Part shown: positions 1 to 47,622 of the stretch, in pieces | Numbering within the stretch: position 1 is the stretch's first letter | How the letters are laid out: each line of letters starts with the position of its first letter | Source of the DNA: a virus | Lineage: Duplodnaviria > Heunggongvirae > Uroviricota > Caudoviricetes | Virus record (IMG/VR): IMGVR_UViG_3300029003_000089 | Reading direction: 5' to 3' (one strand) | DNA length: 49,856 bases | Position numbers and translations under genes: made by a program | The notes under the pieces: generated by a model | Databases searched by the model: none | What the model saw: only the letters and a program-made list of their open reading frames with translations | What the model was told of the DNA's origin: nothing

Positions 1-1410
1 TACTATCGGATAAGTGGATTGGCTATCAGCAGAGATCGTCGGCGACGAATCTCCATCCAGTGTAAAAGACGAATCAGCCGTCGAGACACCACTATCAGTA
101 ACGCTAATATTCATCACGGCATAGTTGGAAACGTTGCCTCTGTTATCCTGTACTGTGGCTCCAACATTCCACGAATTTACACCTTCGCTTTTATAAGCCG
201 GTAAAGTGATCTGCCATGATGTGCCATTTCCACTGATCTTGCCGCCAGCCGCAGTGAATGCACTATCATTCCACTGTACAGACTTGATACCACCACTAGC
301 ATTGTTGATTGTCAGTGTTACAGGGATGATTGATTCCCCCTCCCCCTGAACAGACTCTGGCAAACTGATTTTCAGTGCATGCTTCTTCTTGTACTCCAGA
401 ACAATGTTGTTATTTCGTTCAACAAAATCATAACGCCGGTTCTGGACTTCTCGCATAACTGCAACATTATCGCTGCTAAGCTGTTCAGCCAAGGAAACGC
501 CCGGGCGATAATTAAACTCAACACCAAAGGTTGTATCGTGAGTGTTGCTCTGTCCTTGCTTATGCTGTGCAGAAAACTTAATCAGAGGAACTGGTGTATA
601 AGAAATTCCCCCAGTAACTGCGTAAGGGTTTTCCTGCAGGTTATCGCTTCCAAATAACCCGACATTTTTACCATAATATTTTTCAAACTGAATAGATGCC
701 CCTAATTGCGGATAAGCAGGTAGCCATCCTTCAGCAGAAAAATCCCAGCCATTTGCAGGTCTTTCCAGATAATCATCAATATCACGACTGTTCTTCCAGT
801 CAGATAGACCAAAATAGGTATTTACACCAAGCCTGAAATAATCCCTCCAGTACTCAACCCCAAAACCTGCACGAGAGTGACTACGACTTAAATCGTAATC
901 ATAGAAAACATTCGCACCCAACATTGCGTTATCAGGAGTGAAATGACGAATCCCCAAACCAATATTGGTCTGATTTCGGTCATCAGTACGATGTAGTGAT
1001 GTCTGACTGAATAACACATAATCCTGAGTATCCAGCCATGGATATAAAAAGTCGAATGATGAATCCTTCAAGGAAAAAGAATCATCGACATTAAGCTTGA
1101 TGCGCGCATTGCCATATTGTTGCAACCAGTCGACGACCTCTTTTGTCGCCTGAGTTGATAAAGTATTTACAGCAAAACTACTTGCATTATTATTCGCCAG
1201 GCTCTGACCTGCACTTGCTGCAAATGAGGCCACTTTATTTGCATGCTCATCGCTGGCATAAATTTGCGTAACATCTTTATTACCAGATGATGCAAAACTG
1301 TTTGCTGGGATCAAAGAAAGAGAAACTGGAGATAATATCTGGGTAACAATTACCGACCATGTAATCGCGCCAGATGCAGTTTTTTTTAACTTTTTATTCA
1401 CAGTGGTCAT
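1..1410 (-). CDS. Inverse autotransporter (intimin/invasin family) outer-membrane protein, N-terminal 470 codons; 3' end lies beyond window start
   Basis: ATG at 1410-1408 (MTTVNKKLKK...). Hand translation of the first ~130 codons and the last 20 codons shows no stop; the middle of the frame was not checked. Beta-barrel-type motifs present (e.g. DSSFDFLYPWLDTQD). AT-rich upstream region 1411-1659. Not in the ORF track because no stop in window. Confidence 0.55.
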   Translation of the reverse strand, partial: MTTVNKKLKKTASGAITWSVIVTQILSPVSLSLIPANSFASSGNKDVTQIYASDEHANKVASFAASAGQSLANNNASSFAVNTLSTQATKEVVDWLQQYGNARIKLNVDDSFSLKDSSFDFLYPWLDTQDYVLFSQTSLHRTDDRNQTNIGLGIRHFTPDNAMLGANVFYDYDLSRSHSRAGFGVEYWRDYFRLGVNTYFGLSDWKNSRDIDDYLERPANGWDFSAEGWLPAYPQLGASIQFEKYYGKNVGLFGSDNLQENPYAVTGGISYTPVPLIKFSAQHKQGQSNTHDTTFGVEFNYRPGVSLAEQLSSDNVAVMREVQNRRYDFVERNNNIVLEYKKKHALKISLPESVQGEGESIIPVTLTINNASGGIKSVQWNDSAFTAAGGKISGNGTSWQITLPAYKSEGVNSWNVGATVQDNRGNVSNYAVMNISVTDSGVSTADSSFTLDGDSSPTISADSQSTYPIV

Positions 1411-1659
1411 AGTTCAATCAACGTTATGAATATAATGAAAAAAATAACTGGTATGACAAGAGGCGCGAAATATACAGCTCGTTACAAAAAAATCAACTCA
1501 AAAATAAAATAAAATCTCTGCATAAACTTTATGGCTAAATGATTTCACAACAATGGAAGAAAAATTTTGTTGCTCACGCAATCAATCATTTCGGGCGTTA
1601 CAACTAGTCCTAAATTATATTCGCTAGGTATACTTTATTTTTAAGCTAATACTTTAGCT

Positions 1660-2361
1660 CTATTTCATCGCTCCTTTCAGCCCGAACTTAGCTTTGATTT
1701 CTGCGATCTTCGCCAGAGCCTGTGCACGATTTAGAGGCCTACCGCCCATGACAGGAAGTTGTTTTACTGGTTCAGGTATAGCCTCACCACGGTTAATTCG
1801 CGCGGTCATACAGGCCAGTTCATCGGCAGCCTTGCGCCGTAATTCCGCGTCAGTCAACGCATTGGCCCGCATGTTCTGATACAGGTTGGTAACCAGCCAG
1901 TAGTGCGCGTTTGATTTCCACGGATAAGACTCTGCATCCGGATACAGACCACGCTTCCGGCAATACTCGTAAACCATATCAACCAGCTCGCTGACGTTTG
2001 GCAGCCCGGCGGTAACGGATGCTTCTTCCCGGCACCATGCAACAAACTGCCCGGGTGATGGCAGAAATGGTCTATTCTGCCGACGGGCAACACGCATTCC
2101 GGCGCTCACCTGCTCCATCGTGGTGATCCCGTTTTCCCGGAAAGCCAGAACCCACTGGCGGCGGATTTCGTTCAGTTCGTTCTGGTCACGATTAGCCAGG
2201 CTCGCCGGGAAAGTTGCCAGTAACTGGCTGAATACACCGTTGATTATCTGCGCTACCTGCTGTACCTGCGGCTTTTCGTCGTACTGTTCCGGCATGTTGT
2301 TGGCGATCCGACGCATCTGCTCACGGTCAAAGTTAATCATCTGTGCGGCGATGTTTTTCAT
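1660..2361 (-). CDS. P: Replication protein P (DnaB helicase loader), lambda P-like
   Basis: 233 aa translation matches remembered lambda P nearly end to end (MKNIAAQM..NFDREQMRRIANNMPEQYDEKPQVQQ...); overlaps O stop by 4 bp. Confidence 0.9.
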   Translation of the reverse strand: MKNIAAQMINFDREQMRRIANNMPEQYDEKPQVQQVAQIINGVFSQLLATFPASLANRDQNELNEIRRQWVLAFRENGITTMEQVSAGMRVARRQNRPFLPSPGQFVAWCREEASVTAGLPNVSELVDMVYEYCRKRGLYPDAESYPWKSNAHYWLVTNLYQNMRANALTDAELRRKAADELACMTARINRGEAIPEPVKQLPVMGGRPLNRAQALAKIAEIKAKFGLKGAMK

Positions 2362-3287
2362 AGATCCACCCCGTAAATCCAGTCTGTGTTTGTCAGGTCG
2401 AGTTTTGGTTTGCTAGCTGTCACGCCTGCCTGTTGCTTGTTACGGTTGATTTCGAGTTGGGTCCACTTGTCGCGGAGTTTGGCCGGACTTAGCACGTTAC
2501 CGGACCAGAAGTTGTCCTGGCATGCCCAGCGGAACAGCACGCACATGTCGCGGTGGTTACGTCCGTCACGTTCACGCATCAGGCGGATATCGTTAGCCCA
2601 CCCTGCAAAATTCGGTTTTCTGGCTGATGGCGCGATGGTCTTCACCATGTCAAACATCCACTCTGCGGCGGTCAGGTCTTCTGCTGTCCCCCACTTGCTG
2701 CCGCTCTGAATTGCAGCATCCGGTTTCACCACAGGAAGATCGTTTTCTGGTTGGTCAGAGGATTCGCCAGAATTCTCGGACGAAAAAGGTTTTATATTGT
2801 CTTTTGTTAGTTTGTCTTTTGTGTTTACCTGATTCGGGTAAACGCCTTTACCTGATTTGGGTAAACTTTTTTTACCTGATTCAGGTAAATTTACCTCTTT
2901 CAGGTAAACTTTATTTTTCTTACCTGATTCGGGTAATGTTGACCATTCACTGACCACATTATTAATGCCGGTATTCCGCCCGCTCTGAATAAAAATCCCA
3001 CGCTTTACCAGAACACTTTTTGCAGCAGAACACTTGTGCGGCAATATCCCGGTTAATTCGGAAAGTTGCTCGTTGCTAACCCAATCCAGTTTTTTATTAA
3101 AGCCATATGTTTTGCGCATGACAGCCAGGAAGACCAGAAGCTGGTGCTGTGTTAATCCGGCCAGCATCACAGCTTCCAGCAACTCATTTGCAATGCGCGT
3201 ATAACCATCATCGAGATCTGCCACGCGCGGCTCCTTTTGTGCCGCATCCGGCACTGGAAAATTGAATATCTCAGCAGTGTTTGCCAT
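2358..3287 (-). CDS. O: Replication initiator O-like protein
   Basis: Lambda O-like N-terminal region (VADLDDGY..., LRKTYG.N) starting at internal Met (MANTAEIFNF); ORF track extends to 3377 but the first 30 codons overlap the upstream gene; iteron repeats lie inside the gene as in lambda ori. Confidence 0.8.
   Translation of the reverse strand: MANTAEIFNFPVPDAAQKEPRVADLDDGYTRIANELLEAVMLAGLTQHQLLVFLAVMRKTYGFNKKLDWVSNEQLSELTGILPHKCSAAKSVLVKRGIFIQSGRNTGINNVVSEWSTLPESGKKNKVYLKEVNLPESGKKSLPKSGKGVYPNQVNTKDKLTKDNIKPFSSENSGESSDQPENDLPVVKPDAAIQSGSKWGTAEDLTAAEWMFDMVKTIAPSARKPNFAGWANDIRLMRERDGRNHRDMCVLFRWACQDNFWSGNVLSPAKLRDKWTQLEINRNKQQAGVTASKPKLDLTNTDWIYGVDL
2826..2936. repeat. Origin-like iterons inside O gene: five copies of TACCTGATTCGGGTAAAC-like inverted-repeat elements
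   Basis: Direct reading: tacctgattcgggtaaac / tacctgatttgggtaaac / tacctgattcaggtaaa / tacctctttcaggtaaac / tacctgattcgggtaa; translated as the PESGKK repeats in O. Confidence 0.8.
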
Positions 3288-3373
3288 AATTCCTCCCGCA
3301 ATGAGTGTGTTACGATTTGCACCTGAAAGTCGGTTCTGTTCGCGCAGACCGGCTTTTGCCATTTCTGAACCTG

Positions 3374-3919
3374 TCATATTGCCCCCAGCATGGTGGTGAC
3401 CATCGCCATCAATGGACCAGCCAGGTCCGGGTCCACACGAAACATCGACACAATGCCTTCACTCATCTCCTTCAGTTTCTGGTGGCGTGGTGCGTTGAGA
3501 ATGACAGCCTGTTTTGCCTCACTGAGTTCCTTTTCCATTTCAGCCAGCCGAGCCATGAAGCTATCCTGCTCAACCAAGTGGCCGCGATATTCCAGCGGTA
3601 GTACCGCCAGAATTGCCGGGGTCAATTCACGCACGTTATTTCGGTATTTTTCAGAATCGAATTTGTTATCGAGGAAGCGGAACAGCTTCTGGCGTGCACG
3701 GCTGACATCATCAGGGAAATCGATGGTGCCGCCGCCCTGCTCCCGATACTCATTCACAATGAGTGTGGCAACGACATCCTGATTATCTACAGCCGACCAG
3801 GCGCGGACGGCATCACGGATTTTTTCGTGGCCTGGCACCTGTTTTGTTTGAGAACGATTTATCACCGCTGTCGGGCTAAATCCGCTAGTCTGTTGGTATG
3901 TAAGTGGTTGCATAGTCAT
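3374..3919 (-). CDS. YdaT-family protein (cII-position early gene)
   Basis: 181 aa; motif LTPAILAVLPLEYRGHL resembles remembered Rac YdaT (LIPAILAILPRELRHRL); position between cro-like gene and O. Confidence 0.45.
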   Translation of the reverse strand: MTMQPLTYQQTSGFSPTAVINRSQTKQVPGHEKIRDAVRAWSAVDNQDVVATLIVNEYREQGGGTIDFPDDVSRARQKLFRFLDNKFDSEKYRNNVRELTPAILAVLPLEYRGHLVEQDSFMARLAEMEKELSEAKQAVILNAPRHQKLKEMSEGIVSMFRVDPDLAGPLMAMVTTMLGAI

Positions 3920-3943
3920 TGCCTTATCAGTTAACGCCGCAGT

Positions 3944-4177
3944 TTAGGCGGCAGAATTACTCGCGTTAAACAATGGTGCGAGGTCGGGACGAATATCTGC
4001 TGGTTTAATCTTTCCACCAGTGGCTGAGACAATTTTCATTACATAGCGGGCATCAATTCCGCCACCGTGTAGCCAACGCCAAACAGTGGGTTGGGCTACA
4101 CCGCATAGATCTGCCAGTCGTTTTTGACTACCTGTAATACTGATTGCGAGTTGAATGGTTTGATTTGTCATTATCAA
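3944..4177 (-). CDS. Cro/YdaS-like HTH regulator
   Basis: 77 aa; HTH segment GSQKRLADLCGVAQPTVWRW; divergent from repressor gene. Confidence 0.6.
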   Translation of the reverse strand: MIMTNQTIQLAISITGSQKRLADLCGVAQPTVWRWLHGGGIDARYVMKIVSATGGKIKPADIRPDLAPLFNASNSAA

Positions 4178-4281
4178 TTCCTATTGGTATTGCAATGAAC
4201 AGATAATAGCAATGCGTATCAACCCATTCAATAGCAAAACGTGTTTTGACCATCAATACGCAAGCGTATAAATTAAAACTT
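4178..4281. promoter_or_regulatory. Divergent immunity promoter/operator region (oR-like) of prophage A
   Basis: Intergenic between divergent cro-like and cI-like genes; repeated motif AATAGCAAT(N3)TATCA at 4205-4221 plus related ATTGCAAT (4188-4201) and AATAGCAAA (4230-4241). Confidence 0.55.
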
Positions 4282-4974
4282 ATGAAAAAAGAAACTCTTG
4301 CTGATCGCTTAAACCTAGCGATGGAACAATCTGGAATGTCTCAAGGCGCTCTTGCAAAGGCGTCTGGCGTAGCTCAACCCACAATCTGGAGACTGACAAG
4401 CGGCAACGCGCGCGGCTCAACAAAAATTGTTGAAATAGCTAATGCATTGGGTGTTCGAACAGAGTGGCTCTCATCAGGCATAGGCCCGATGAGAAATGAC
4501 GGTCAACAATCAGGAAAGCCTGCTGTCAACCATTCCAAATACTTCAAGATTGACGTTCTTGATATAGAAGTCAGTGCTGGGCCGGGCGTCATCAACCGTG
4601 AGTTTGTAGAAGTCCTACGCTCGGTTGAGTACTCGTTTGACGATGCTCGTCACATGTTCGATGGCAGGAAGGCAGAAAATATCCGCATCATTAACGTACG
4701 CGGTGACAGCATGTCAGGAACGATCGAACCAGGTGATCTGCTGTTCGTTGATATCACGGTTAAATCTTTCGACGGTGATGGTATCTATGCGTTTCTGTAC
4801 GACGACACAGCCCATGTAAAGCGCCTGCAAATGATGAAAGATAAGCTACTGGTTATCTCTGATAACAAGAGCTACTCACCGTGGGACTCGATCGAGAAAG
4901 ACGAGATGAACCGGGTGTTCATTTTCGGGAAGGTTATTGGCAGTATGCCGCAGACGTATAGGAAACACGGATAA
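4282..4974 (+). CDS. CI-like repressor, N-terminal HTH plus C-terminal LexA-like S24 peptidase domain
   Basis: ATG at 4282 (MKKETLADRLN...) gives 230 aa, same length as prophage B repressor; C-terminal motifs INVRGDSM and KRLQ typical of autocleaving repressors; ORF track start 4246 is TTG. Confidence 0.85.
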   Translation: MKKETLADRLNLAMEQSGMSQGALAKASGVAQPTIWRLTSGNARGSTKIVEIANALGVRTEWLSSGIGPMRNDGQQSGKPAVNHSKYFKIDVLDIEVSAGPGVINREFVEVLRSVEYSFDDARHMFDGRKAENIRIINVRGDSMSGTIEPGDLLFVDITVKSFDGDGIYAFLYDDTAHVKRLQMMKDKLLVISDNKSYSPWDSIEKDEMNRVFIFGKVIGSMPQTYRKHG

Positions 4975-5053
4975 TCAGCTGCGTGCTGATGAGGCTTTTG
5001 GGTAATGCGCTGAAAGAATTCTTTATAAAAATAACATTACGGGAAAGGCAAAA

Positions 5054-5323
5054 ATGAGTGATAAAAAACTTATAAAAAAATCAAATAACTGTGTAGATGC
5101 ATATGCTGATGCATTTGGATATTCATCTTTTGGGGAAGATGACGATCGCTTAGGCTCCATATCTTTCTTTCAGCATGTTACAGAATGGGGCGCTGATGGT
5201 AGTAATGACACTGAAAACGTAAAGTACAACATTGCAACAATTCGCATGACGGAAGATTTAATGCTTAAACTCGCTGACTTTATTCGCGATCAGCATGATA
5301 GAGCTAAAACCAATAAGTCATAA
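5054..5323 (+). CDS. Hypothetical small acidic protein, first gene of cI-downstream cassette
   Basis: 89 aa ORF, same strand as cI, 80 bp downstream; no recognisable domain. Confidence 0.45.
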   Translation: MSDKKLIKKSNNCVDAYADAFGYSSFGEDDDRLGSISFFQHVTEWGADGSNDTENVKYNIATIRMTEDLMLKLADFIRDQHDRAKTNKS

Positions 5324-5331
5324 TATTAACA

Positions 5332-5772
5332 ATGAAACACGGTTATTACGAAGCTCCAAACCTAACTGAAAAGCTTGAACAAGCGGCAAGATCATCATCT
5401 TTGCATACTGCAGCATTTTCTCAATCAGCTGGTATGTCTGGCGGTAATGTACCTATGCTACAATCAAGTGGTAGCGGTGGCTCTGGGAGTAATAATGTGC
5501 TTGAATCGAAAGTTGCAAAGCTTGAGTCTGATGTGTCCTATATCCGACGTGACGTTGATGAGCTTAAGACAGATGTCAAATCTATCGACAGAAACATGAT
5601 CGCTGTTCTGGAGCGACTCGATTCAATAAAAGATTCACTAGCCAAAAAACCCTCCATCGATGCTGTCGATAGAAAGGTTTCAGACGCAAAGCTTGCGGTA
5701 TTGCTTGGTGTTCCAGCAATCATCGCTGCAGGAACAGGTCTTTATAAGCTATCAATGTACTTTTTTCTTTAG
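5332..5772 (+). CDS. Hypothetical coiled-coil protein with C-terminal transmembrane anchor (XhlA-like architecture)
   Basis: 146 aa; Gly/Ser-rich linker, heptad-like segment LESKVAKLESDVSYIRRDVDELKTDVKSIDRNMIAVLERLDSIKDSL, C-terminal hydrophobic LAVLLGVPAIIAAGTGLYKL; 9 bp after previous ORF. Confidence 0.5.
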   Translation: MKHGYYEAPNLTEKLEQAARSSSLHTAAFSQSAGMSGGNVPMLQSSGSGGSGSNNVLESKVAKLESDVSYIRRDVDELKTDVKSIDRNMIAVLERLDSIKDSLAKKPSIDAVDRKVSDAKLAVLLGVPAIIAAGTGLYKLSMYFFL

Positions 5773-5848
5773 TGCTTAAGAAACTGCTCGCCACCTTGCA
5801 TTACGCAAAGCGATTTTTCATTCCCTATTACCCTTTCTTATCCATCTA

Positions 5849-5878
5849 AACCCGGCCCCAGTGCCGGGTTTTCTTTTG
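5849..5878 (+). terminator. Rho-independent terminator after cI-downstream cassette
   Basis: aacccggc cccagt gccgggtt followed by ttcttttg. Confidence 0.65.
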
Positions 5879-6004
5879 CCTTCCCCTCATCACACAAACC
5901 GTTCAAAAAACCACCACGACCTCGCTTCAGTTATCGCTATGCGATGCAAGTCACAAAATTAATTCTTTTTGCTATCAAACATTTAATATCAAAACACATT
6001 TAAT

Positions 6005-6046
6005 AATAGCAATAAGTATTGATATCACCAATAGCAATGGCTATCA
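6005..6046. promoter_or_regulatory. oL-like operator pair of prophage A
   Basis: aatagcaataagtattga and aatagcaatggctatca share the AATAGCAAT..TATCA motif with the cro/cI intergenic region. Confidence 0.5.
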
Positions 6047-6143
6047 TCACCATGTCGCAACAACACAACGATACGGCAACCACCTGATTCACCGTTGCGA
6101 TGACCGCTTAGATCCGCAGCTTGATTTCAGCAGGCTTCGGGGA

Positions 6144-6530
6144 GTGCGAGGGGTGAAACGGACGCGTGAACGTCGGTGTGACCAGCTGAAATCAACTCAA
6201 CACTTCATACCTCAGTCGCTTCAACGAGGCGGCTTAGTTATGACAACCGGCGGCCATCCACCGCCTGAATGCGCGCAGAAGTCTCTATATGTTCAGCAGC
6301 CCAGCTTACGGGCAGGAGTTTTTATGGTTCATCAACATTACGGAACGCAGACCGTTAATCGCGGTGCGGTCATGCCAGGAATGCTGGTCAAACACAAAGA
6401 TGGTACCTGGACTGCATCAGCTAATTTACGCGGACGGCTTTATCTGCATCGCGGCATCGAGCGCACTTATACCCGTGATTTGCTCGTGGAAGTTTTTCTC
6501 GACGGACGCGGCAACGGCCTGAATCACTAA
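6144..6530 (+). CDS. Hypothetical early-left-operon protein (kil/cIII position), GTG start
   Basis: 128 aa ORF between oL-like sites and gam; Arg-rich N-terminus (VKRTRERR); no confident homology. Confidence 0.3.
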
Positions 6531-6605
6531 TCCCCTTTCCTGTTTACCTAATCAGCCCGGCATTTCGCAGGCGATATTTTCACAGCCATTTTCAGGAGTT
6601 CAGCC

Positions 6606-6902
6606 ATGAACGCTTATTACATTCAGGATCGTCTTGAGGCTCAAAGCTGGGCGCGTCACTACCAGCAGATCGCCCGTGAAGAGAAAGAGGCAGAACTGGC
6701 AGACGACATGGAAAAAGGTCTTCCACAGCACCTGTTTGAATCACTCTGCATCGATCATTTGCAACGCTGCGGGGCCAGCAAAAAAGCCATTACCCGTGCG
6801 TTTGATGACGATGTTGAGTTTCAGGAGCGCATGGCAGAACACATCCGGTACATGGTTGAAACCATTGCTCACCACCATGTTGATATTGATTCAGAGGTAT
6901 AA
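6606..6902 (+). CDS. gam: Gam (RecBCD inhibitor), lambda-like short form
   Basis: 98 aa translation [21 protein letters not shown]... matches remembered lambda Gam. Confidence 0.9.
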
Positions 6903-6907
6903 AACGG

Positions 6908-7693
6908 ATGAGTACAGCACTCGCAACGCTGGCTGGGAAGCTGGCTGAACGTGTCGGCATGGATTCTGTCGACCCACAGGAACTGATCACCACTCTTCGT
7001 CAGACGGCATTTAAAGGTGATGCCAGCGATGCGCAGTTCATCGCATTGCTGATCGTCGCCAACCAGTACGGCCTTAATCCGTGGACGAAAGAAATTTACG
7101 CCTTCCCTGATAAGCAGAACGGCATCGTTCCGGTGGTGGGCGTTGATGGCTGGTCCCGCATCATCAATGAAAACCAGCAGTTTGATGGCATGGACTTTGA
7201 GCAGGACAATGAATCATGTACGTGCCGGATTTACCGCAAAGACCGCAATCATCCGATCTGCGTTACCGAATGGATGGATGAATGCCGCCGCGAACCATTC
7301 AAAACTCGCGAAGGCAGAGAAATCACGGGGCCGTGGCAGTCGCATCCCAAACGGATGTTACGGCATAAAGCCATGATTCAGTGTGCCCGTCTGGCCTTCG
7401 GATTTGCTGGTATCTATGACAAGGATGAAGCCGAGCGCATTGTCGAAAATACTGCATACACTGCGGAACGTCAGCCGGAACGCGACATCACTCCGGTTAA
7501 CGATGAAACCATGCAGGAGATTAACACTCTGCTGATTGCCCTGGACAAAACATGGGATGTCGACTTATTGCCGCTCTGTTCCCAGATATTTCGCCGCGAC
7601 ATTCGCGCATCGTCAGAACTGACACAGGCCGAAGCAGTGAAAGCTCTTGGATTCCTGAAACAGAAAGCCACTGAGCAGAAGGTGGCAGCATGA
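6908..7693 (+). CDS. bet: Bet (Red-beta single-strand annealing recombinase)
   Basis: 261 aa translation matches remembered lambda Bet essentially throughout. Confidence 0.95.
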
Positions 7694-8370
7694 CACCGGA
7701 CATTATCCTGCAGCGTACCGGGATCGACGTGAGAGCTGTCGAACAGGGGGATGATGCATGGCACAAATTACGGCTCGGCGTCATCACCGCTTCAGAAGTT
7801 CACAACGTGATAGCAAAGCCCCGCTCAGGAAAGAAGTGGCCTGACATGAAAATGTCCTACTTCCACACCCTGCTGGCTGAGGTTTGCACCGGTGTGGCTC
7901 CGGAAGTTAATGCTAAGGCGCTGGCGTGGAGAAAACAGTACGAGAACGACGCCAGAACCCTGTTTGAATTCACTTCCGGCGTGAATGTTACTGAATCCCC
8001 GATCATCTATCGCGACGAAAGTATGCGCACCGCCTGCTCTCCCGATGGTTTATGCAGTGACGGCAATGGCCTTGAGCTGAAATGCCCGTTTACCTCCCGG
8101 GATTTCATGAAGTTCCGGCTCGGTGGTTTCGAGGCCATAAAGTCGGCTTACATGGCCCAGGTGCAGTACAGCATGTGGGTGACACGAAAAGATGCCTGGT
8201 ACTTTGCCAACTATGACCCACGAATGAAGCGTGAAGGCCTGCATTATGTCGTGGTTGAGCGGGATGAAAAGTACATGGCGAGTTTTGACGAGATGGTGCC
8301 GGAGTTCATCGAAAAAATGGACGAAGCACTGGCTGAAATTGGTTTTGTATTTGGAGAGCAATGGCGATGA
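7690..8370 (+). CDS. exo: Exo (Red-alpha 5'-3' exonuclease)
   Basis: 226 aa translation matches remembered lambda Exo; overlaps bet stop (ATGA). Confidence 0.95.
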
Positions 8371-8549
8371 CCCATCCTCACGATAATATCCGGGTAGGCG
8401 CGATCACTTTCGTCTACTCCGTTACAAAGCGAGGCTGGGTATTTCACGGTCTTTCTGTTATCCGAAATCCGCTGAAAGCCCAGCGGCTGGCTGAGGAGAT
8501 AAATAATAAACGGGGGGCGGTATGCACAAAGCATCTCCTGTTGAGTTAA
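8361..8549 (+). CDS. Hypothetical small protein
   Basis: 62 aa ORF in operon context after exo. Confidence 0.35.
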
Positions 8550-8713
8550 GAACGAGTATTGATTTGGCACATAGCCTTGCTCAAATTGGAGTCAGGTTTG
8601 TGCCAATACCAGCAGAAACAGACGAAGAATTTCATACGTTAGCCACATCCCTTTCACAAAAGCTGGAAATGATGGTGGCGAAAGCAGAAGCAGATGAGAG
8701 AGACCAGGTATGA
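8522..8713 (+). CDS. Hypothetical small protein
   Basis: 63 aa ORF, same strand. Confidence 0.3.
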   Translation: MHKASPVELRTSIDLAHSLAQIGVRFVPIPAETDEEFHTLATSLSQKLEMMVAKAEADERDQV

Positions 8714-8723
8714 CAACCACTGA

Positions 8724-9005
8724 ATGCATTTTTCTGGCAGCGGGCTTCATATTCTGTGTGCTTATGCTTGCCGACATGGGGCTTGTTCAGTGACACCTCA
8801 GCAAGAAAACGCCCTTCGCAGCATTGCCCGTCAGGCTAATTCTGAAATCAAAAAAGTCAGACAGCAGTTTCCGGATAAAAACGTCAATGACATTTGCCGT
8901 AGCGTACTGAAGAAGCACCGCGAAACGGTAACGCTGAAGGGATTCACACCGACTCATTTAAGCCTGGCAATCGGCATGTTAAACGGCGTCTTTAAGGAAC
9001 GATGA
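8724..9005 (+). CDS. Hypothetical protein
   Basis: 93 aa ORF; real start may be internal. Confidence 0.35.
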   Translation: MHFSGSGLHILCAYACRHGACSVTPQQENALRSIARQANSEIKKVRQQFPDKNVNDICRSVLKKHRETVTLKGFTPTHLSLAIGMLNGVFKER

Positions 9006-9103
9006 ACATGAAAAGCAAAATTATCAGGGAGCTACAGGCTCCTTTTTTATTGTTCGCATTCACCCTCAAGCGTATTAACCAACAGTTCAGGGATTAATGA
9101 AAG

Positions 9104-9325
9104 ATGGCAGACATCATTGATTCAGCATCAGAAATAGAAGAATTACAGCGCAACACAGCAATAAAAATGCGCCGCCTGAACTACCTGGCTGTATCTGCCA
9201 CTCATTGTTGTGAGTGTGGCGATCCGATAGATGAACGAAGACGCCTGGCCGTTCAGGGTTGTCGGACTTGCGCCAGTTGCCAGCAAGATCTGGAGCTTAT
9301 CCGCAAACAAAGGGGGATTAAGTGA
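9104..9325 (+). CDS. TraR/DksA-type C4 zinc-finger protein
   Basis: 73 aa with CxxC...CxxC (CCECGDPIDERRR...CRTCASC). Confidence 0.6.
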   Translation: MADIIDSASEIEELQRNTAIKMRRLNYLAVSATHCCECGDPIDERRRLAVQGCRTCASCQQDLELIRKQRGIK

Positions 9326-9651
9326 TGGCTAACCTGCAACTTGCTGTTAAAAGTGAATACTTCGATGCCATGATTCGCGGAGAGAAAACGGAAGAGTATC
9401 GCTTGTGTAATGACTACTGGAATAAGCGAATTATGTTCCGGGAATATGACCGCCTGATTATCACAAAGGGATATCCGAAGCGCGACGATTCCAGTCGCAG
9501 AATTGATGTTCCGTATGACGGATATGAAGTGAAGACAATCACACATCCGCACTTTGGCGATAAACCGGTAAAGGTGTTCGCTATAAAGGTGAATATCAGC
9601 ACTGAATATCAATCCGCACAACACAAGGTCAAGAATGTTCAGAGTGATTGA
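9322..9651 (+). CDS. Hypothetical protein
   Basis: 109 aa ORF, start overlaps previous stop. Confidence 0.4.
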   Translation: MMANLQLAVKSEYFDAMIRGEKTEEYRLCNDYWNKRIMFREYDRLIITKGYPKRDDSSRRIDVPYDGYEVKTITHPHFGDKPVKVFAIKVNISTEYQSAQHKVKNVQSD

Positions 9652-9874
9652 CCCTAACACCTGGTACGTCGACCACCACGGCACTCCCTGCAAAATCCTG
9701 CGTTCTACCCACAACAAAGTTCACTACATCCGAAAAGGCAGAACATGTATCGCCAGCATGTTCCGCTTTAATCATGACTTTGAACCTGTGAATAAAGCTG
9801 ATGCAGATCGGATAGCAGAAGAGATCGAAACGGCAGAACACATTAAGAAGTTACGTGACATGCGCAGGAAATAG
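9635..9874 (+). CDS. Hypothetical protein
   Basis: 79 aa ORF. Confidence 0.35.
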   Translation: MFRVIDPNTWYVDHHGTPCKILRSTHNKVHYIRKGRTCIASMFRFNHDFEPVNKADADRIAEEIETAEHIKKLRDMRRK

Positions 9875-10013
9875 AAAAATTGATAAATTCAATACTGCAT
9901 TTCTCAGCATTAAATTTATCTCTATGACCAGTCAAGAGATGTACCTGCCATGAGCTTAATATCATGTCAGATATATCGGTCACAAACTCCCTCAGCAGCT
10001 AAGAGGAGGACAA

Positions 10014-10250
10014 ATGTCTCGACTAATCACTTTACAGGACTGGGCTAAAGAAGAATTTGGGGACTTAGCACCAAGTGAGCGAGTTCTGAAAAAATACGCG
10101 CAAGGGAAAATGATGGCCCCACCCGCTATAAAAGTTGGTCGCTACTGGATGATTGACCGAAATTCCCGTTTTGTAGGAACGCTTGCAGAACCGCAACTCC
10201 CAATAAACGCAAACCCAAAACTCCAAAGGATAATCGCTGATGGCTGCTAG
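10014..10250 (+). CDS. xis: Excisionase (Xis-like)
   Basis: 78 aa; TLQDWAKE...RVLKKYA...PPAIKVGRYW resembles lambda Xis; overlaps int start; SD aggagg upstream. Confidence 0.6.
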   Translation: MSRLITLQDWAKEEFGDLAPSERVLKKYAQGKMMAPPAIKVGRYWMIDRNSRFVGTLAEPQLPINANPKLQRIIADGC

Positions 10251-11382
10251 ACCCCGATCTCACAAAATCTCTATACCCAATTTATATTGCAAATTAGATA
10301 AGCGAACCGGAAAGGTATATTGGCAATACAAACATCCACTATCCGGTCGTTTTCATAGCTTAGGAACTGATGAGAATGAAGCAAAACAAGTTGCTACTGA
10401 AGCAAATACCATTATTGCTGAACAACGTACCAGACAAATATTAAGCGTCAATGAGCGTCTGGAAAGAATGAAAGGCAGGCGCTCAGACATTACGGTGACA
10501 GAATGGCTTGATAAATATATTTCTATCCAAGAGGACAGGCTGCAACATAATGAACTAAGACCCAACTCCTATCGGCAAAAAGGCAAACCCATTCGTCTTT
10601 TCCGTGAGCATTGTGGAATGCAACACCTCAAGGATATTACCGCACTTGATATTGCCGAAATAATTGATGCTGTAAAGGCTGAAGGTCATAACAGGATGGC
10701 GCAAGTCATGAGAATGGTGTTGATCGACGTCTTCAAAGAAGCACAACACGCAGGACATGTTCCGCCAGGATTTAACCCAGCGCAGGCAACAAAACAACCG
10801 CGAAATCGAGTAAACCGCCAAAGATTGTCACTGCCCGAATGGCAGGCAATATTTGACAGCGTAAGCAGACGGCAGCCCTATTTAAAATGCGGCATGCTAC
10901 TTGCTCTTGTTACTGGACAACGTTTAGGCGATATCTGCAATTTGAAATTCTCTGATATATGGGACGACATGTTGCACATTACTCAGGAAAAAACCGGTTC
11001 AAAACTTGCTATTCCGCTTAACCTGAAATGCGATGCTCTGAATATTACCCTTCGTGAAGTTATATCTCAGTGCAGGGATGCTGTTGTTAGTAAATATCTG
11101 GTCCATTACCGTCACACTACCTCTCAAGCAAACAGAGGAGACCAGGTTTCTGCAAATACTCTGACAACGGCTTTTAAAAAGGCCCGGGAAAAATGTGGCA
11201 TAAAATGGGAGCAAGGAACTGCGCCCACATTTCATGAGCAGCGATCTCTGTCAGAACGGTTATATCGGGAACAGGGTCTGGATACGCAAAAGTTGTTAGG
11301 CCATAAATCCAGAAAAATGACCGACCGATACAATGATGATCGTGGTAAAGACTGGATTATCGTAGATATCAAAACAGCATAG
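10240..11382 (+). CDS. int: Tyrosine integrase, e14 IntE family (icd-targeting)
   Basis: 380 aa; clear paralog of the second integrase at 47603-48730 (shared blocks MAARPR, LLALVTGQRLGDI, KFSDIWDD, TFHEQRSLSERLY, LLGHK); adjacent to icd 3' fragment. Confidence 0.9.
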   Translation: MAARPRSHKISIPNLYCKLDKRTGKVYWQYKHPLSGRFHSLGTDENEAKQVATEANTIIAEQRTRQILSVNERLERMKGRRSDITVTEWLDKYISIQEDRLQHNELRPNSYRQKGKPIRLFREHCGMQHLKDITALDIAEIIDAVKAEGHNRMAQVMRMVLIDVFKEAQHAGHVPPGFNPAQATKQPRNRVNRQRLSLPEWQAIFDSVSRRQPYLKCGMLLALVTGQRLGDICNLKFSDIWDDMLHITQEKTGSKLAIPLNLKCDALNITLREVISQCRDAVVSKYLVHYRHTTSQANRGDQVSANTLTTAFKKAREKCGIKWEQGTAPTFHEQRSLSERLYREQGLDTQKLLGHKSRKMTDRYNDDRGKDWIIVDIKTA

Positions 11383-11392
11383 AAAATAGCCA

Positions 11393-11433
11393 GTTTTGGG
11401 GAAGGGTTTTGGGGAAAGTTTTGGGGAAGATTT
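11393..11433. repeat. Three tandem TTTTGGGGAA repeats, candidate integrase arm-type sites
   Basis: agttttggggaagggttttggggaaagttttggggaag immediately after int stop and near the att/icd junction. Confidence 0.4.
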
Positions 11434-11458
11434 TACATCATCATAAAACAACGGGCGT

Positions 11459-11482
11459 GTTATACGCCCGTTTCAATATTTA
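11459..11482. terminator. Bidirectional hairpin between convergent int and icd fragment
   Basis: acgggcgt gttat acgcccgt with T-rich flanks on both strands. Confidence 0.5.
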
Positions 11483-11500
11483 ACACATGTAGTGATTACA

Positions 11501-11660
11501 TATTCTTGATGATCGCGTCACCAAACTCTGAACATTTCAGCAGTTTAGCGCCTTCCATCAGACGTTCGAAGTCATAGGTTACGGTCTTGGCATTGATTGC
11601 GCCTTCCATACCTTTAACAATCAGGTCAGCCGCTTCAGTCCAACCCATATGGCGCAGCAT
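11501..11660 (-). pseudogene. icd: icd (isocitrate dehydrogenase) 3'-terminal fragment, att-associated duplicate
   Basis: Minus-strand translation [58 protein letters not shown] matches remembered Icd C-terminus; upstream frame closed by stop. Confidence 0.8.
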
Positions 11661-11893
11661 TAGTTAGATGACTAAATCGTAACTATTTGACATAGCAACA
11701 TAATTTTACTAATTTGCATATAACTCATTAGCCCTTAGCATTTCTATAACTCATTGATTATAAACATGTGTTTTTGAGTTTTGATAACCATTTTTAGCAT
11801 AAAAATAGCAGTTAACATTTGCAGAAGTTAAGATCAGAGAAAAATTTTACCCTGTAGGGTATTACGTCTTAAATGTGACTTTAATAAATAATT

Positions 11894-12727
11894 TTATTTC
11901 TGTAATCGGTTTATATTAACGTAAAGCATCTCGATTAGTTCTTTTGCATTTTTACTATAGTGCAATTCTCTATGGCAATTCGGACAAAGGGCAACACAGT
12001 TATCTGTTGTATCAGCACCACCTGAAGACAGGGGAATTACATGATGCACTTCCAAATATGGGTTTCCATCATTTAAATAAAACGGAGCATTTTTACCACA
12101 GTTTTCACATATACCTTTACTTTGCTGTAAAATCCAAGCTTTTACCATCGGGTCTCGGACATAAACTTTTTGTAGTCTTTCTACCTCAACTGGTTTCCTA
12201 GAGCCCTCGGGTTGACTCAACGTTTTCTTAATTAATTTACTAACCCTCATATTCAGAAGCGATTCATCATCTGTAGGCTGTGAAAGCTCTGATAGTTCTC
12301 CACGTATTATAGACGCCCAAAAACTGTCACTATAAATACCTGGAACATTTATCAATATTCGTTTCGTTCTATTGCCGGAAGGAATTTCCTTTCTCCCCGT
12401 ACGACTAAAATAAGCCTGATAACCACACATCTTCAAGCGTATATCGCGGGGGCTATTACCAATCAAAGTAAAATATTCACCAGGATGGATTTTTCTTTCA
12501 TCCAAAGAATGCATATGTTTTCTGACTGATGATGACGCCAGATATACTACGACTTGGGATACACCAGAATCAACCAACCGTTCAATGATATAATCAAGAG
12601 CGATATTGTAATCTTTGTTTCTGTCACCCGGCCCCCACGACTCAAGGATTAGACCATAAACACCATCCTCTTCACCTATCGAACACTCAGCTTTCAGTTC
12701 AATTCCATTATTATCAAAAACATGCAT
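11894..12727 (-). CDS. mcrA: McrA, 5-methylcytosine-specific HNH restriction endonuclease
   Basis: 277 aa; matches remembered e14 McrA including C-terminal HNH motif (EVHHVIPLSSGG...CPNCH); AT-rich gene. Confidence 0.9.
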   Translation of the reverse strand: MHVFDNNGIELKAECSIGEEDGVYGLILESWGPGDRNKDYNIALDYIIERLVDSGVSQVVVYLASSSVRKHMHSLDERKIHPGEYFTLIGNSPRDIRLKMCGYQAYFSRTGRKEIPSGNRTKRILINVPGIYSDSFWASIIRGELSELSQPTDDESLLNMRVSKLIKKTLSQPEGSRKPVEVERLQKVYVRDPMVKAWILQQSKGICENCGKNAPFYLNDGNPYLEVHHVIPLSSGGADTTDNCVALCPNCHRELHYSKNAKELIEMLYVNINRLQK

Positions 12728-12833: not shown

Positions 12834-13388
12834 TTATTTATCCCCTGCAGGAAACCTCTTATACAAAGTTGACACACCAACATCATAGATAATCGCCACC
12901 TTCTGGCGAGGAACTCCTGATGCAATTAATCGTCCGGCCTGTTCCCATTGTTCTGGTGTAAGTTTGGGACGACGTCCACCAATTCGTCCCTGTGCGCGAG
13001 CAGCTTCCAGTCCAGCTTTTGTTCTTTCAACAATCAGTTCACGCTCCATTTCAGCCAGGGCACCCATCACATGAAAGAAAAAGCGCCCCATTGGGGTACT
13101 GGTATCAATTGAATCCGTCAGACTACGAAAGTTGATGCCTCGTTCGCGCAACTCCTCCACCAGCACGACAAGATGCCGCATACTGCGCCCCAGTCGGTCC
13201 AGTTTCCAGACCACCAGCGTATCACCTGCCGATAATGTCCTGAGCAGTTTTTTCAGTCCCGGCCTTTCGGACTTTGTACCGCTTATCTTGTCTTCAAAAA
13301 TCAGCTCGCATCCTGCACAGTTCAGCGCATTACGTTGTAGATCTGTGTTCTGGTCATTTGTTGACACACGTACATAGCCAATAAGCAT
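12834..13388 (-). CDS. pin: Pin DNA invertase (serine recombinase, Hin/Gin/Cin family)
   Basis: Translation from internal Met MLIGYVRVSTNDQ (184 aa) matches remembered e14 Pin; adjacent to hix-like site. Confidence 0.9.
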   Translation of the reverse strand: MLIGYVRVSTNDQNTDLQRNALNCAGCELIFEDKISGTKSERPGLKKLLRTLSAGDTLVVWKLDRLGRSMRHLVVLVEELRERGINFRSLTDSIDTSTPMGRFFFHVMGALAEMERELIVERTKAGLEAARAQGRIGGRRPKLTPEQWEQAGRLIASGVPRQKVAIIYDVGVSTLYKRFPAGDK

Positions 13389-13442
13389 GGTAGATCTCCC
13401 TGACAAAAGCAGGAATGATGCCATTTGCTCGTTATTTCTGCA

Positions 13443-13468
13443 TTTTCATAAACGTTGGTTTGGGAGAA
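13443..13468. repeat. hix/gix-like recombination site (left end of invertible tail-fibre segment)
   Basis: TTTTCATAAACG TT GGTTTGGGAGAA; right half identical to the inverted copy at 15301-15326. Confidence 0.7.
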
Positions 13469-13948
13469 GGCTCAGCATTACCCGTTGGTGTGCCTGTTCC
13501 GTGGCCTTCAGCCACTCCGCCAACAGGCTGGCTGAAATGCAACGGAGCAGCTTTTTCTGCTGAAGAATACCCGGAACTGGCAAAGGCTTATCCGACAAAT
13601 AAATTACCTGATTTACGCGGTGAGTTTATTCGTGGCTGGGATGACGGACGTGGAGTGGATAACGGAAGGGGATTATTAACGCTTCAGGACGGTGCGATTG
13701 TCAGTCATAACCACTATTGGGGAATCTGGACTTCACGAACTAACGACCAGACTCTGGGAAGTTTTACAGGCACCACGATTTTAAAACAAATCACGCCCCT
13801 GTCTCCGGCCATTGACTTCGATAATTACCCAATTCCCAACCCGGCTATTACAGAGGGTGGTGTTGTTGCGGCAACGACTAAACCTGCAGGTGCGAATGAA
13901 ACACGCCCACGAAATGTCGCTTTTAACTATATTGTGAGGGCTGCATAA
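13457..13948 (+). CDS. Alternative tail-fibre C-terminal segment (silent orientation inside invertible segment)
   Basis: Frame continues GLGEGSALPVG... from the crossover core, exactly in frame with the constant fibre N-terminus ...ALENLGLGE after inversion; ORF track 13415-13948. Confidence 0.7.
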   Translation, partial: GLGEGSALPVGVPVPWPSATPPTGWLKCNGAAFSAEEYPELAKAYPTNKLPDLRGEFIRGWDDGRGVDNGRGLLTLQDGAIVSHNHYWGIWTSRTNDQTLGSFTGTTILKQITPLSPAIDFDNYPIPNPAITEGGVVAATTKPAGANETRPRNVAFNYIVRAA

Positions 13949-14550
13949 TGAATAACGCAGAATTAAACAGTGAATTAATTGCCACTATGGCAGGAGAAAT
14001 TACTGTTTATAACTTTGACGTCATGAGTCGGGAGTATATTTCAGCTTCAACTGAATATCTTGCTGTTGGTGTCGGCATTCCGGCATATTCCTGTTTAGAT
14101 GCTCCAGGCACCTACAAAGCTGGTTATGCAATCTGCCGCTCTGCAGATTTTAACTCATGGGAATATGTACCAGACCATCGCGGTGAAATCGTCTATAACA
14201 CCGAAACGGGAGACGCCAAAGAAATCACAACTCCGGGTGATTACCCCGAAAAAACAACCACTATCGCCCCGTTAACGCCATACGATAAATGGGATGGTGA
14301 GAAATGGGTGACGGATACTGAGACACAGCATAGCGCCGCAGTAGACGCGGCAGAAGCACAACGTCAGTCACTGATTGATACTGCAATGGCTTCCATTAGT
14401 CTGATTCAACTGAAATTGCAGGCCGGGCGGAAGCTGATGCAGGCAGAGACCACCCGACTTAACACTGTGCTGGATTACATTGACGCGGTGACGGCAACAG
14501 ATACCAGTACCGCGCCGGATGTCATCTGGCCTGAACTGCCGGAGGAGTAG
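13948..14550 (+). CDS. Tail fibre assembly protein (Tfa) for the alternative fibre
   Basis: 200 aa; C-terminal motif PDVIWPELPE shared with the other Tfa (PDIEWPTPP); downstream of alternative fibre segment. Confidence 0.75.
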   Translation: MNNAELNSELIATMAGEITVYNFDVMSREYISASTEYLAVGVGIPAYSCLDAPGTYKAGYAICRSADFNSWEYVPDHRGEIVYNTETGDAKEITTPGDYPEKTTTIAPLTPYDKWDGEKWVTDTETQHSAAVDAAEAQRQSLIDTAMASISLIQLKLQAGRKLMQAETTRLNTVLDYIDAVTATDTSTAPDVIWPELPEE

Positions 14551-16191: not shown

Positions 16192-17240
16192 GAAATCGCC
16201 CCCAGAACCGCCAGTTCATTTTTCGCAATGGTGATATTGTCCGCCGGTGCAAGCAACTGATGGCTGTATTCCCCGTTCGCACCGGAAATCGCTTCACTGA
16301 TACGTGACACCTTCAGTTCTCCCTGCGGATAACCATCACGCAGCAGGAACGAACGCAACTCCGCGGTGATGGCAGCCCGTATTTCCGGTGTGTCCGGCGT
16401 CACACGGATATGAAAATCCACCGTATGTGCCACCGGCCTGAACACATACAAATCAGAGCCTGCCACCGGGGCCAGTGGCCCGATATGTTGTCTTGCCGCC
16501 GTTTCCGTTGATTCTTCCGGAATGGGATTAATCAGGTCACTGCTGGCAATCATCACACCGACAGTCCCCGTTCCCATCCAGTGTCGGTATGTCCATGCGC
16601 GGGTAATGCCAGGCACTTCTTTAGCCCAGACGACATAGTCCCCGTCAGCCCCGCCCTGCGGCGTCCAGTAATACCGCTCAATGACGCGGGCGCGCCACGT
16701 TTCCAGCTCTTCAGTATCAAATCCGCCTGTCAGGGTGTCAGCCACACCGGAAGACGGCAGACCATTCACCGGCGTGACCAGGATTAATGCCGTACCGTCG
16801 TCAGCGTTACCGACCGCACCTGCACTTGAGCAGGCGATCGGCACGCGCAGGACACCACCGGAGCTGATTGCATCGTCAGTTGTCGTGTACTGCACCAGGT
16901 CATCGCGCTGAATAACACTCCCGGCAGTCACCTTCAGGCCATCGCTGACACCTTCCCAGCGCATATACCCGCTGGCAACCGTGGCTCCCTTGCGCGGACA
17001 CCGTTTCATCGCAGCATGTCGCGCCAGCCAGGACTCATCGCACAGGTCAGGCAGCATATTCATTGCCAGATAATCGATGTAACCGTAGACCGTATGCAGC
17101 GCCGCCGCATACACCTTTGCCCGCACGTCTTCATCCATGCGCCGGAGCGTGTCGCTGACGTCCAGCCTGGCGAATAAATCGTTACGGAGCATACTGATAT
17201 TTTCTGCCAGCGTCGGGCGCTGAAATTCACTGTCCGCCAT
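16182..17240 (-). CDS. Baseplate J-like protein (Mu gp47-like)
   Basis: 352 aa; gene order and size. Confidence 0.7.
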
Positions 17241-35307: not shown

Positions 35308-36342
35308 ATGACTGCATCAGCGACCCCCACTAATATCACTCATAAGTTTATTGTTCACATTATGAACAAGGAACAACAGGGGTTAGCCACCATTATTCCT
35401 TGTCCTTCAGAAAAACCTGTTCAGCAAGCATCAAAAGACCTCTCTAACGCACTTACTGAAAGGTACTCTGGGAGAGCAGGTAAAGGATATGGGAAATTTG
35501 AAGATGACCGCGATAGTTACCCTATGGGTAATATCGTTGATGATTATTTCGTAAATAAAACACATAGTTTTTATGATACTAGTATCCGAATGATCAATCA
35601 TTTAAAAGCCAGAGCCGATGATGAATCAATGTCTACTGGTGGTTATGTAATAATTGCCCATAATGAGGTAAATGGAAATCATTATTTGATGGTTGCAATC
35701 CTAACTTCAGCAGTTGGCTCTTCAGTCCACGATTTTGAAATTCAAGAAAGTGAATATCTAGACATTGCTAAACTTCGAGTAGCGGGACGAATTGACTTAA
35801 CTGGGCGCCAGAATGGCAAAGAGAGATATATTAGCTTTCTAAAGGGGCAAAATTCAGTAGCAGGTTATTTCAAAAAGTTTTTAGGTTGCAACGATATTCT
35901 AATTGCCAAACAAGAAACAACAAAATTACGGAATGCACTTTTAGAATTTGCTACTGAAAGAGGTTTTGAACCAGAGGCACGTGAAGAGTTCCTAAATAAG
36001 GCTCATGAAAAATTAAAAAATTTAAATCGTTCTGGTGAAACTTTCGACACTCAAATTTTTGCAAACGAGATATGGCCAACTGCTCCTGAGTTGTTAGTTG
36101 AAAAGTTAACCAATGACGATCTGGAGTTCTCTGATGGGTTCGTGCCTGATGGCAACGTTATACGTGGGCTTGTTAGTTTCAAAGGAAAGTCCAAACATTG
36201 GTCTCTGAAATTCGAGCGTGCGGCCTTGCATGATGGCAGCGTTCTTTATGATTCAGAAAACGATAAATTGATACTTACCGAGATTCCGGATACGCTAAGA
36301 TCAGAGATTTTATCAGAATTAGGTGAAGAGGATGAGCAGTAA
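35308..36342 (+). CDS. NdpA/YejK-family nucleoid-associated-protein homolog (first gene of opposite-strand cargo cassette)
   Basis: 344 aa; blocks GGYVIIAHNEVNGNHYLMVAILTS, YLDIAKLRVAGRIDLT, RYISFLKG, DKLILTEIPDTLR align with remembered E. coli YejK; SD aaaagga upstream; AT-rich. Confidence 0.65.
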   Translation: MTASATPTNITHKFIVHIMNKEQQGLATIIPCPSEKPVQQASKDLSNALTERYSGRAGKGYGKFEDDRDSYPMGNIVDDYFVNKTHSFYDTSIRMINHLKARADDESMSTGGYVIIAHNEVNGNHYLMVAILTSAVGSSVHDFEIQESEYLDIAKLRVAGRIDLTGRQNGKERYISFLKGQNSVAGYFKKFLGCNDILIAKQETTKLRNALLEFATERGFEPEAREEFLNKAHEKLKNLNRSGETFDTQIFANEIWPTAPELLVEKLTNDDLEFSDGFVPDGNVIRGLVSFKGKSKHWSLKFERAALHDGSVLYDSENDKLILTEIPDTLRSEILSELGEEDEQ

Positions 36343-47376: not shown

Positions 47377-47622
47377 ATGCTTCAAATGCTGACACTTGAG
47401 GAATGGGCTGCGGAAAAATTTAGGAGTAACCCTCCAAGTGTGTCCACATTGCGTCGTTATGCTAAGCAGAATTTATTTTGTCCACCGGCAATGAAACAAG
47501 GTCGACTATGGCGAGTACGTGAGGACGCAGAGTTAGTTGGAGAATTAGTTACTCCTGTCATTAAGAAAAGTGATTCTATTATTCTACAAAGGATTTTAAG
47601 TAATGGCAGCCAGACCACGTAA
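47377..47622 (+). CDS. xis: Excisionase (Xis-like)
   Basis: 81 aa; paralog of the 10014-10250 product (TLEEWAAEKF...LRRYAKQ...PPAMKQGRLW). Confidence 0.6.
   Translation: MLQMLTLEEWAAEKFRSNPPSVSTLRRYAKQNLFCPPAMKQGRLWRVREDAELVGELVTPVIKKSDSIILQRILSNGSQTT

Follow-up and report, generated by a model that had tools for sequence, protein, structure and literature searches.

A large FdeC-like inverse autotransporter adhesin gene as probable moron cargo beside gene P of a lambdoid prophage at icd in Escherichia coli

The DNA analysed here, referred to as the window, is a stretch of 49,856 nucleotides (IMG/VR record IMGVR_UViG_3300029003_000089) whose left end lies inside a gene for an FdeC-like type Ve adhesin. 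This gene is very probably a self-contained moron that fills the slot between P/ren and the nin region of a 4A7-like lambdoid prophage, prophage A, which is integrated at icd. The adhesin is an unnamed new member of a well-known family, found in a well-known kind of cargo slot. Its position as cargo between P and nin/Q is a common arrangement in E. coli, which makes the case real but ordinary, and mechanistically unsurprising.

The adhesin ORF (1..1410, minus strand) begins with an ATG at 1410 and shows no stop in its 470 codons, the 5' third of the gene, before the window ends on the left. It lies directly downstream of a lambda-like gene P (1660..2361, also minus strand), as the original prediction had described, and the AT-rich gap noticed there after P (1411..1659, minus strand) is 249 bp long with 29.7% GC. 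The prediction had also read the product as an intimin/invasin-type adhesin with beta-barrel motifs, and a profile search of the translation agrees with it, since residues 57-334 (409..1242, minus strand) match the Pfam model PF11924, IAT_beta, with E=4e-102. Among solved structures, this beta-barrel translocator domain is nearest to the barrel of invasin (4E1T, E=1e-73), which is followed by that of intimin (4E1S, E=7e-63). The signal-like N-terminus that had been pointed out, MTTVNKKLKKTASGAITWSVIVTQILSPVSLSLIPANSFA/SS, contains a Lys-rich stretch, a hydrophobic core and an SFA/SS site, so that by inspection of the sequence residues 1-40 (1291..1410, minus strand) form a predicted long Sec signal peptide, which aligns with the N-terminus of FdeC. 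The first Ig-like passenger domain is D00-like (residues 342-441; 88..387, minus strand), matches the intimin D00-D0 structure 6TQD with E=1.2e-9 and is 37% identical to its FdeC equivalent. Positions 1..101 (minus strand) are the gene-proximal end of a tandem repeat array of 357 bp (119 residues), and they also match two further registers. The passenger part of the adhesin within the window comprises only the first Ig-like domain and part of one 119-residue repeat.

Codons 8-11 of the adhesin contain an A8 tract (window 1380-1387, minus strand), which in strain H22 is an A7 tract that shifts the frame. Phase variation at this site was considered and rejected, because 81 nt are invariant in 500 of 560 records. 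The sampled variants around the tract are SNPs or a 3-nt insertion, the tract being otherwise stable across the 560 records, and the A7 tract of H22 probably reflects a sequencing error or a mutation private to that strain.

The left part of the gene, as well as the nin, Q and late genes, was read in other, near-identical genomes and not in the strain of the window; L001 coordinates are those of the Rb-23 locus. The complete gene has 4,266 bp, or 1,421 codons, in both Rb-23 (L001 17145-21410) and EC958. The full-length protein is formed by the signal peptide (residues about 1-40), the barrel (residues 57-334), the D00-like Ig domain (residues 342-441), three near-identical 119-residue repeats (residues 439-795; 357-bp period, 98% matches) and about six further Ig-like domains (residues 796-1421). 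At the DNA level, TRF places the array at L001 19039-20101, with a period of 357, 3.0 copies and 98% matches. The repeat is present in one to four copies in different strains, which gives adhesins of 1183, 1302, 1421 and 1540 aa, and the nearest genomes have three copies.

Pfam matches on the full-length adhesin of the L001 copy include Big_1 (E=6.6e-56) and Invasin_D3 (E=1.2e-61), and no Pfam match to a LysM or lectin domain is found in it. An N-terminal PF11924 barrel, a signal peptide (by inspection) and a passenger of tandem Big_1/Invasin_D3 domains are thus found together in one protein, as in inverse autotransporters. The AlphaFold model of the last 221 residues (pLDDT 89.6) consists of two all-beta Ig-like domains, and its best Foldseek matches are intimin D0-D1 and D00-D0, FdeC (4E9L), InvE, InvD and invasin. 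A lectin tip like those of intimin and invasin was rejected, given that the Big_1 alignment, the AlphaFold model and Foldseek all indicate Ig-like domains. Outside its own family, the final domain is nearly without relatives among 1.84 billion representative proteins, the sole clearly diverged one being a fragment of 135 residues with 55% identity.

FdeC (EaeH), which is a vaccine candidate, has nearly the same length as the prophage adhesin (1,417 against 1,421 aa), and the two proteins are colinear in signal peptide, barrel, D00-like domain and string of Ig-like domains. Neither of them has a LysM domain or a lectin tip. An end-to-end alignment with FdeC of SMS-3-5 gives 31% identity overall, with 55.6% in the barrel, 37% in the D00 domain and about 27% in the remaining passenger. 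The prophage adhesin differs from FdeC in its one to four near-identical 119-residue repeats and in a last domain that is nearly without outside relatives. The loci are also different: the adhesin gene is flanked by P and ybcN in a prophage, whereas fdeC of SMS-3-5 lies between aldo/keto reductase genes and rclC. EC958 and similar strains carry both genes. Judged by these comparisons of sequence and locus, the prophage adhesin is a paralogue of FdeC and not an orthologue.

Yersinia invasin and the intimin of EPEC/EHEC share with the adhesin the barrel family and the Ig-like passenger domains (1CWV, 6TQD). Unlike these proteins, the adhesin lacks both LysM and the C-type lectin tip and is encoded outside the LEE island and its Tir system, and its NCBIfam intimin score is 330 bits against a cutoff of 1400. 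The other inverse autotransporters described by Goh et al. 2019, namely YeeJ, IatA/YchO, IatB/SinH, IatC and IatD, share the PF11924 barrel with it (PMC6714894). The adhesin stays below the curated NCBIfam cutoffs for IatC (389/2400), SinH (318/999) and YchO (270/508), and it scores far below each of those for Ilp, YrIlm and Cronobacter Inv.

Upstream of the adhesin, prophage A contains within the window cI, cro, O, P, gam-bet-exo, xis and int. Gene P is of the lambda type (PF06992, E=1.2e-61). It is preceded by the replication gene O (2358..3377; PF04492, E=1.1e-33), by a YdaT-family gene at the position of lambda cII (3374..3919; PF06254, E=7.4e-30) and by a Cro-like, YdaS-type helix-turn-helix gene (3944..4177; PF15943, E=1e-14), all of them on the minus strand. 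The CI-type repressor (4246..4974, plus strand), which has a helix-turn-helix and an S24 peptidase domain, matches PF01381 and PF00717. The integrase (10240..11382, plus strand), which inserts prophage A at icd, is annotated in Rb-23 and EC958 and is 98.8% identical to the corresponding stretch of phage 4A7. The prophage ends at an icd C-terminal fragment of 55 residues (11496..11663, minus strand), whose translation equals the C-terminus of icd. Profile matches, the annotation of Rb-23 and the identity with 4A7 all uphold the earlier view that the immunity, Red and integration modules are intact. The gene content is that of a lambdoid prophage, with nin, Q and late genes seen only in matching genomes, outside the window. 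An N-type antiterminator is annotated left of cI neither here nor in 4A7.

Window 1670-11662 shares 96-99% identity with the viable phage 4A7 (NC_049946, genus Bievrevirus), barring two short cargo stretches at about 4974-5847 and 9330-9630. At 5054-5772 (plus strand), just downstream of cI and at the position of lambda rexAB, there are two ORFs of 89 and 146 aa with about 38% GC. They give no significant Pfam match and no PADLOC match, and 4A7 has different genes there.

Left of P, nothing of prophage A is present in the window except the adhesin gene itself. The original prediction had therefore considered that prophage A might be a deletion remnant that ends at P and abuts the chromosome, the adhesin being a host gene on its flank. 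The near-identical genomes make this extremely improbable. Over window 1..3400, E. coli Rb-23 and two further genomes show 100% identity and many ST131 genomes, EC958 and JJ1886 among them, show 99.7%; over window 1..11660 the identity with Rb-23 is 99.96%. On the left of the adhesin, Rb-23 and EC958 continue with a convergent gene for an alpha/beta-hydrolase (esterase), a ylcH-like ORF of 33 codons, ybcN, ninE, ybcO (DUF1364), rusA, ylcG and Q. Q is followed by holin, lysozyme, Rz and iss/bor, and then by terminase, portal, protease and decoration genes, and in the EC958 prophage the capsid and tail genes are complete. The claim that prophage A lacks nin, Q and late genes consequently holds for the window, which contains none, and fails for the prophage, where they are present left of the adhesin in Rb-23 and EC958; they are missing from the window because it ends inside the adhesin gene. 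Flanking prophage sequence accompanies the adhesin in more than 500 genomes, which also speaks against an abutting chromosomal gene.

In Rb-23 the major capsid gene (L001 2307-3950) is truncated beside another integrase-bearing element, and this copy of prophage A is, by its sequence, probably defective.

The distribution of the gene decides further between phage cargo and host flank. A 1-kb barrel probe matches 558 of 5,426 complete E. coli genomes at a coverage of at least 80%, so that about 10% of them, including those of the pandemic ST131 clone, carry the adhesin gene. A probe for the junction of adhesin, gap and P also matches 558 genomes; all adhesin copies found adjoin a lambdoid P, and the adhesin is never away from it. 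The order P-adhesin-esterase-ylcH-ybcN...Q is present in Rb-23, EC958, H22, GN4738 and AHB7. KTa008 has a 93%-identical adhesin between P and ylcH-ybcN, here with no esterase, in a prophage that has a different repressor, cII and O and that is integrated by ybhC, the lambda attachment site, and not at icd. This other attachment site likewise speaks against a host gene beside icd. Prophage-free icd loci, that of K-12 among them, are matched only by the ybcN end of the query, and this match lies at the DLP12 prophage. A conserved chromosomal adhesin in prophage-free strains, the observation that could have favoured the host-flank reading, was not found, as every copy adjoins a lambdoid P and one of the prophages is at ybhC. 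The other option of the original prediction, that the adhesin is phage cargo, is the one borne out: the gene always lies by P, with different immunity regions and attachment sites. A plasmid-borne copy was rejected as an exception, because p23AR0151A contains a captured icd chromosomal segment with the adhesin in the same prophage context, in the order P-adhesin-esterase-ybcN.

None of 50,697 phage genome records contains the adhesin gene or any real inverse autotransporter gene by DNA and protein search. Two protein matches in such records were rejected, one being a mislabelled 501-kb Salmonella contig and the other a 2.1-kb fragment. From the mosaic distribution, we infer that infectious particles may spread the adhesin.

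As cargo, the adhesin lies in a module of about 4.56 kb, delimited by pairwise comparison at L001 17106/17113 and 21669. The right edge, at window 1669, falls within the final three codons of P: adhesin-free phages cease to be similar at 1669/1670, and matches to P only all begin at window 1670 (query position 510). The upstream region of 249 bp is part of the module and, like the adhesin gene, is conserved in the KTa008 prophage. Directly past the adhesin stop, at L001 17113-17133, there is a hairpin of 9 pairs, 7 of them G-C, with a T run on both strands, which makes it a bidirectional terminator; it is conserved in KTa008 and travels with the gene. The GC content is 44.0% in the adhesin gene and 29.7% in the upstream region, against 50.6% in P and O and 49.9% from nin to Q. 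The module thus has its own terminator, a distinct base composition and a slot with sharp edges that is filled differently in three states, those of 4A7, KTa008 and Rb-23/EC958, as is expected of a moron.

The distinct composition and sharp edges would also suit a gene that was carried into the prophage by a separate mobile element, such as a transposon, an IS composite or an integrative element, and in strain H54 an IS66-family element is found inside the adhesin region. This origin is nevertheless very improbable, and for a transposon or IS it was rejected, because the module has no transposase or integrase and no terminal inverted repeats, direct repeats or target duplications at its edges (17106-17113 and 21669). 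The edges instead fall at the P stop and at the esterase stop and terminator, both of them gene ends conserved across lambdoid phages, as for modular recombination. With neither repeats at its edges nor a transposase, the adhesin module looks like a classic moron that is exchanged by recombination.

The slot resembles other lambdoid slots between P/ren and ybcN, which are bounded by the P stop codon and ylcH-ybcN and receive exchangeable modules of foreign composition. In 4A7 the adhesin slot contains ren, qacE, a small ORF and a serine recombinase, beyond which comes the same esterase, and in DLP12 the same slot is filled by emrE-ybcK-ybcL-ybcM. Unlike the slot contents of 4A7 and DLP12, the one described here is a 4.3-kb gene for an outer-membrane adhesin.

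The esterase belongs to a separate module (L001 15760 to 17105). Its gene (L001 16065-17108) encodes an alpha/beta hydrolase of the BD-FAE family (E=5.7e-45) with a lipoprotein-like N-terminus (..MSVGSC). It is found in the viable phages 4A7, Lambda_4C10, D2, 1W, 3W, Perceval and PhiR47_2 and is missing from the KTa008 prophage.

The working of the adhesin can be proposed from the intimin/invasin/FdeC family. The protein would be exported by Sec via its long signal peptide, and BAM would insert the 12-stranded barrel into the outer membrane. The passenger would then be threaded out as a hairpin and form a rod of about 11 Ig-like domains, which may mediate attachment or biofilm formation and whose length would be set by the number of 119-residue repeats, from one to four. 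The layout of the locus suggests that in the lysogen the adhesin would be expressed from a promoter of its own, located in the AT-rich gap and probably silenced by H-NS. The gap has two weak sigma-70-like sites (9-of-12), at 1496->1469 and 1459->1432, and promoter-like sites are no commoner than by chance (3 found against 1.4 +/- 1.2 expected). No terminator was found in the gap between P and the adhesin gene, and because none separates them, the adhesin would also be read on the pR-O-P transcript after induction. The terminator of the module would then stand before nin and Q, at the position that tR2 has in lambda.

The orientation of the adhesin gene, which is that of O, P and pR, together with the lack of a terminator found after P, could also mean that the adhesin serves the phage, for example by covering receptors and so blocking superinfection or by a role in lytic growth. 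Exclusion functions are frequent among the cargo genes that lambdoid phages carry near their immunity and nin regions, which is a general argument in favour of such a benefit. Even so, a service to the phage is very improbable, since the protein is built like an adhesin for host cells or biofilms, in a layout colinear with that of FdeC. The decayed prophage remnants at icd in GN4738 and AHB7, which retain P-adhesin-esterase-ybcN, keep the adhesin intact, and this fits a benefit to the host. Phage 4A7 carries at least sitA beside its icd fragment, and in its decayed relatives at icd sitABCD is retained alongside the adhesin and the esterase, a grouping of cargo that benefits the host within a single phage lineage.

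The RefSeq annotation of the adhesin gene is generic, and no functional study of the adhesin was found in the literature. Its one mention there is as EC958_1349, for which 'mutations' were reported (PMC8541385); short-read assemblies may misassemble the 357-bp repeat, and this could account for them. A survey of E. coli inverse autotransporters defines seven groups and scores EC958, JJ1886 and uk_P46212 only for fdeC, iatA and iatB (PMC6714894, Data Set S1). All three strains carry the prophage adhesin, yet the survey gives it no group of its own, so it was either merged with FdeC or missed. With this gene, the inverse autotransporter family of E. coli gains a member that is widespread and carried by phage. 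Tentatively, the adhesin could be placed in an eighth class of that family, as a lysogenic-conversion adhesin for the colonisation and biofilms of ExPEC (ST131), with a reach that is tuned by the repeats and a spread by lambdoid phages, although this broader interpretation is a good deal less likely than not to hold as a whole. Should it promote adhesion, the protein would clearly exemplify lambdoid host conversion by a large outer-membrane adhesin. The practical interest is moderate, owing to the prevalence of the adhesin in ST131.

Two prophages are integrated in tandem at icd in the window, where prophages A and B are kept apart by the icd fragment at 11496-11663 (minus strand), and H22 has the same layout. 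Prophage B, which lies in the region 11496-49856, is a full-length myovirus prophage of the e14 family. It contains a gene for an mcrA-like type IV restriction enzyme (11894-12727, minus strand), a Pin-type invertase (12834-13424, minus strand), tail-fibre genes (13415-14550) and an integrase (47603-48730, plus strand). Between its lysis and Q regions there is an island of 31-41% GC with two ORFs of 344 and 395 aa (35308-37510, plus strand), neither of which is matched by PADLOC. The ORF that adjoins the integrase (48999-49856, minus strand) matches the PADLOC candidate defence family PDC-M01B with E=1e-114. At the position of this ORF, between intE and icd, other strains have genes for an AAA ATPase and an HNH endonuclease.
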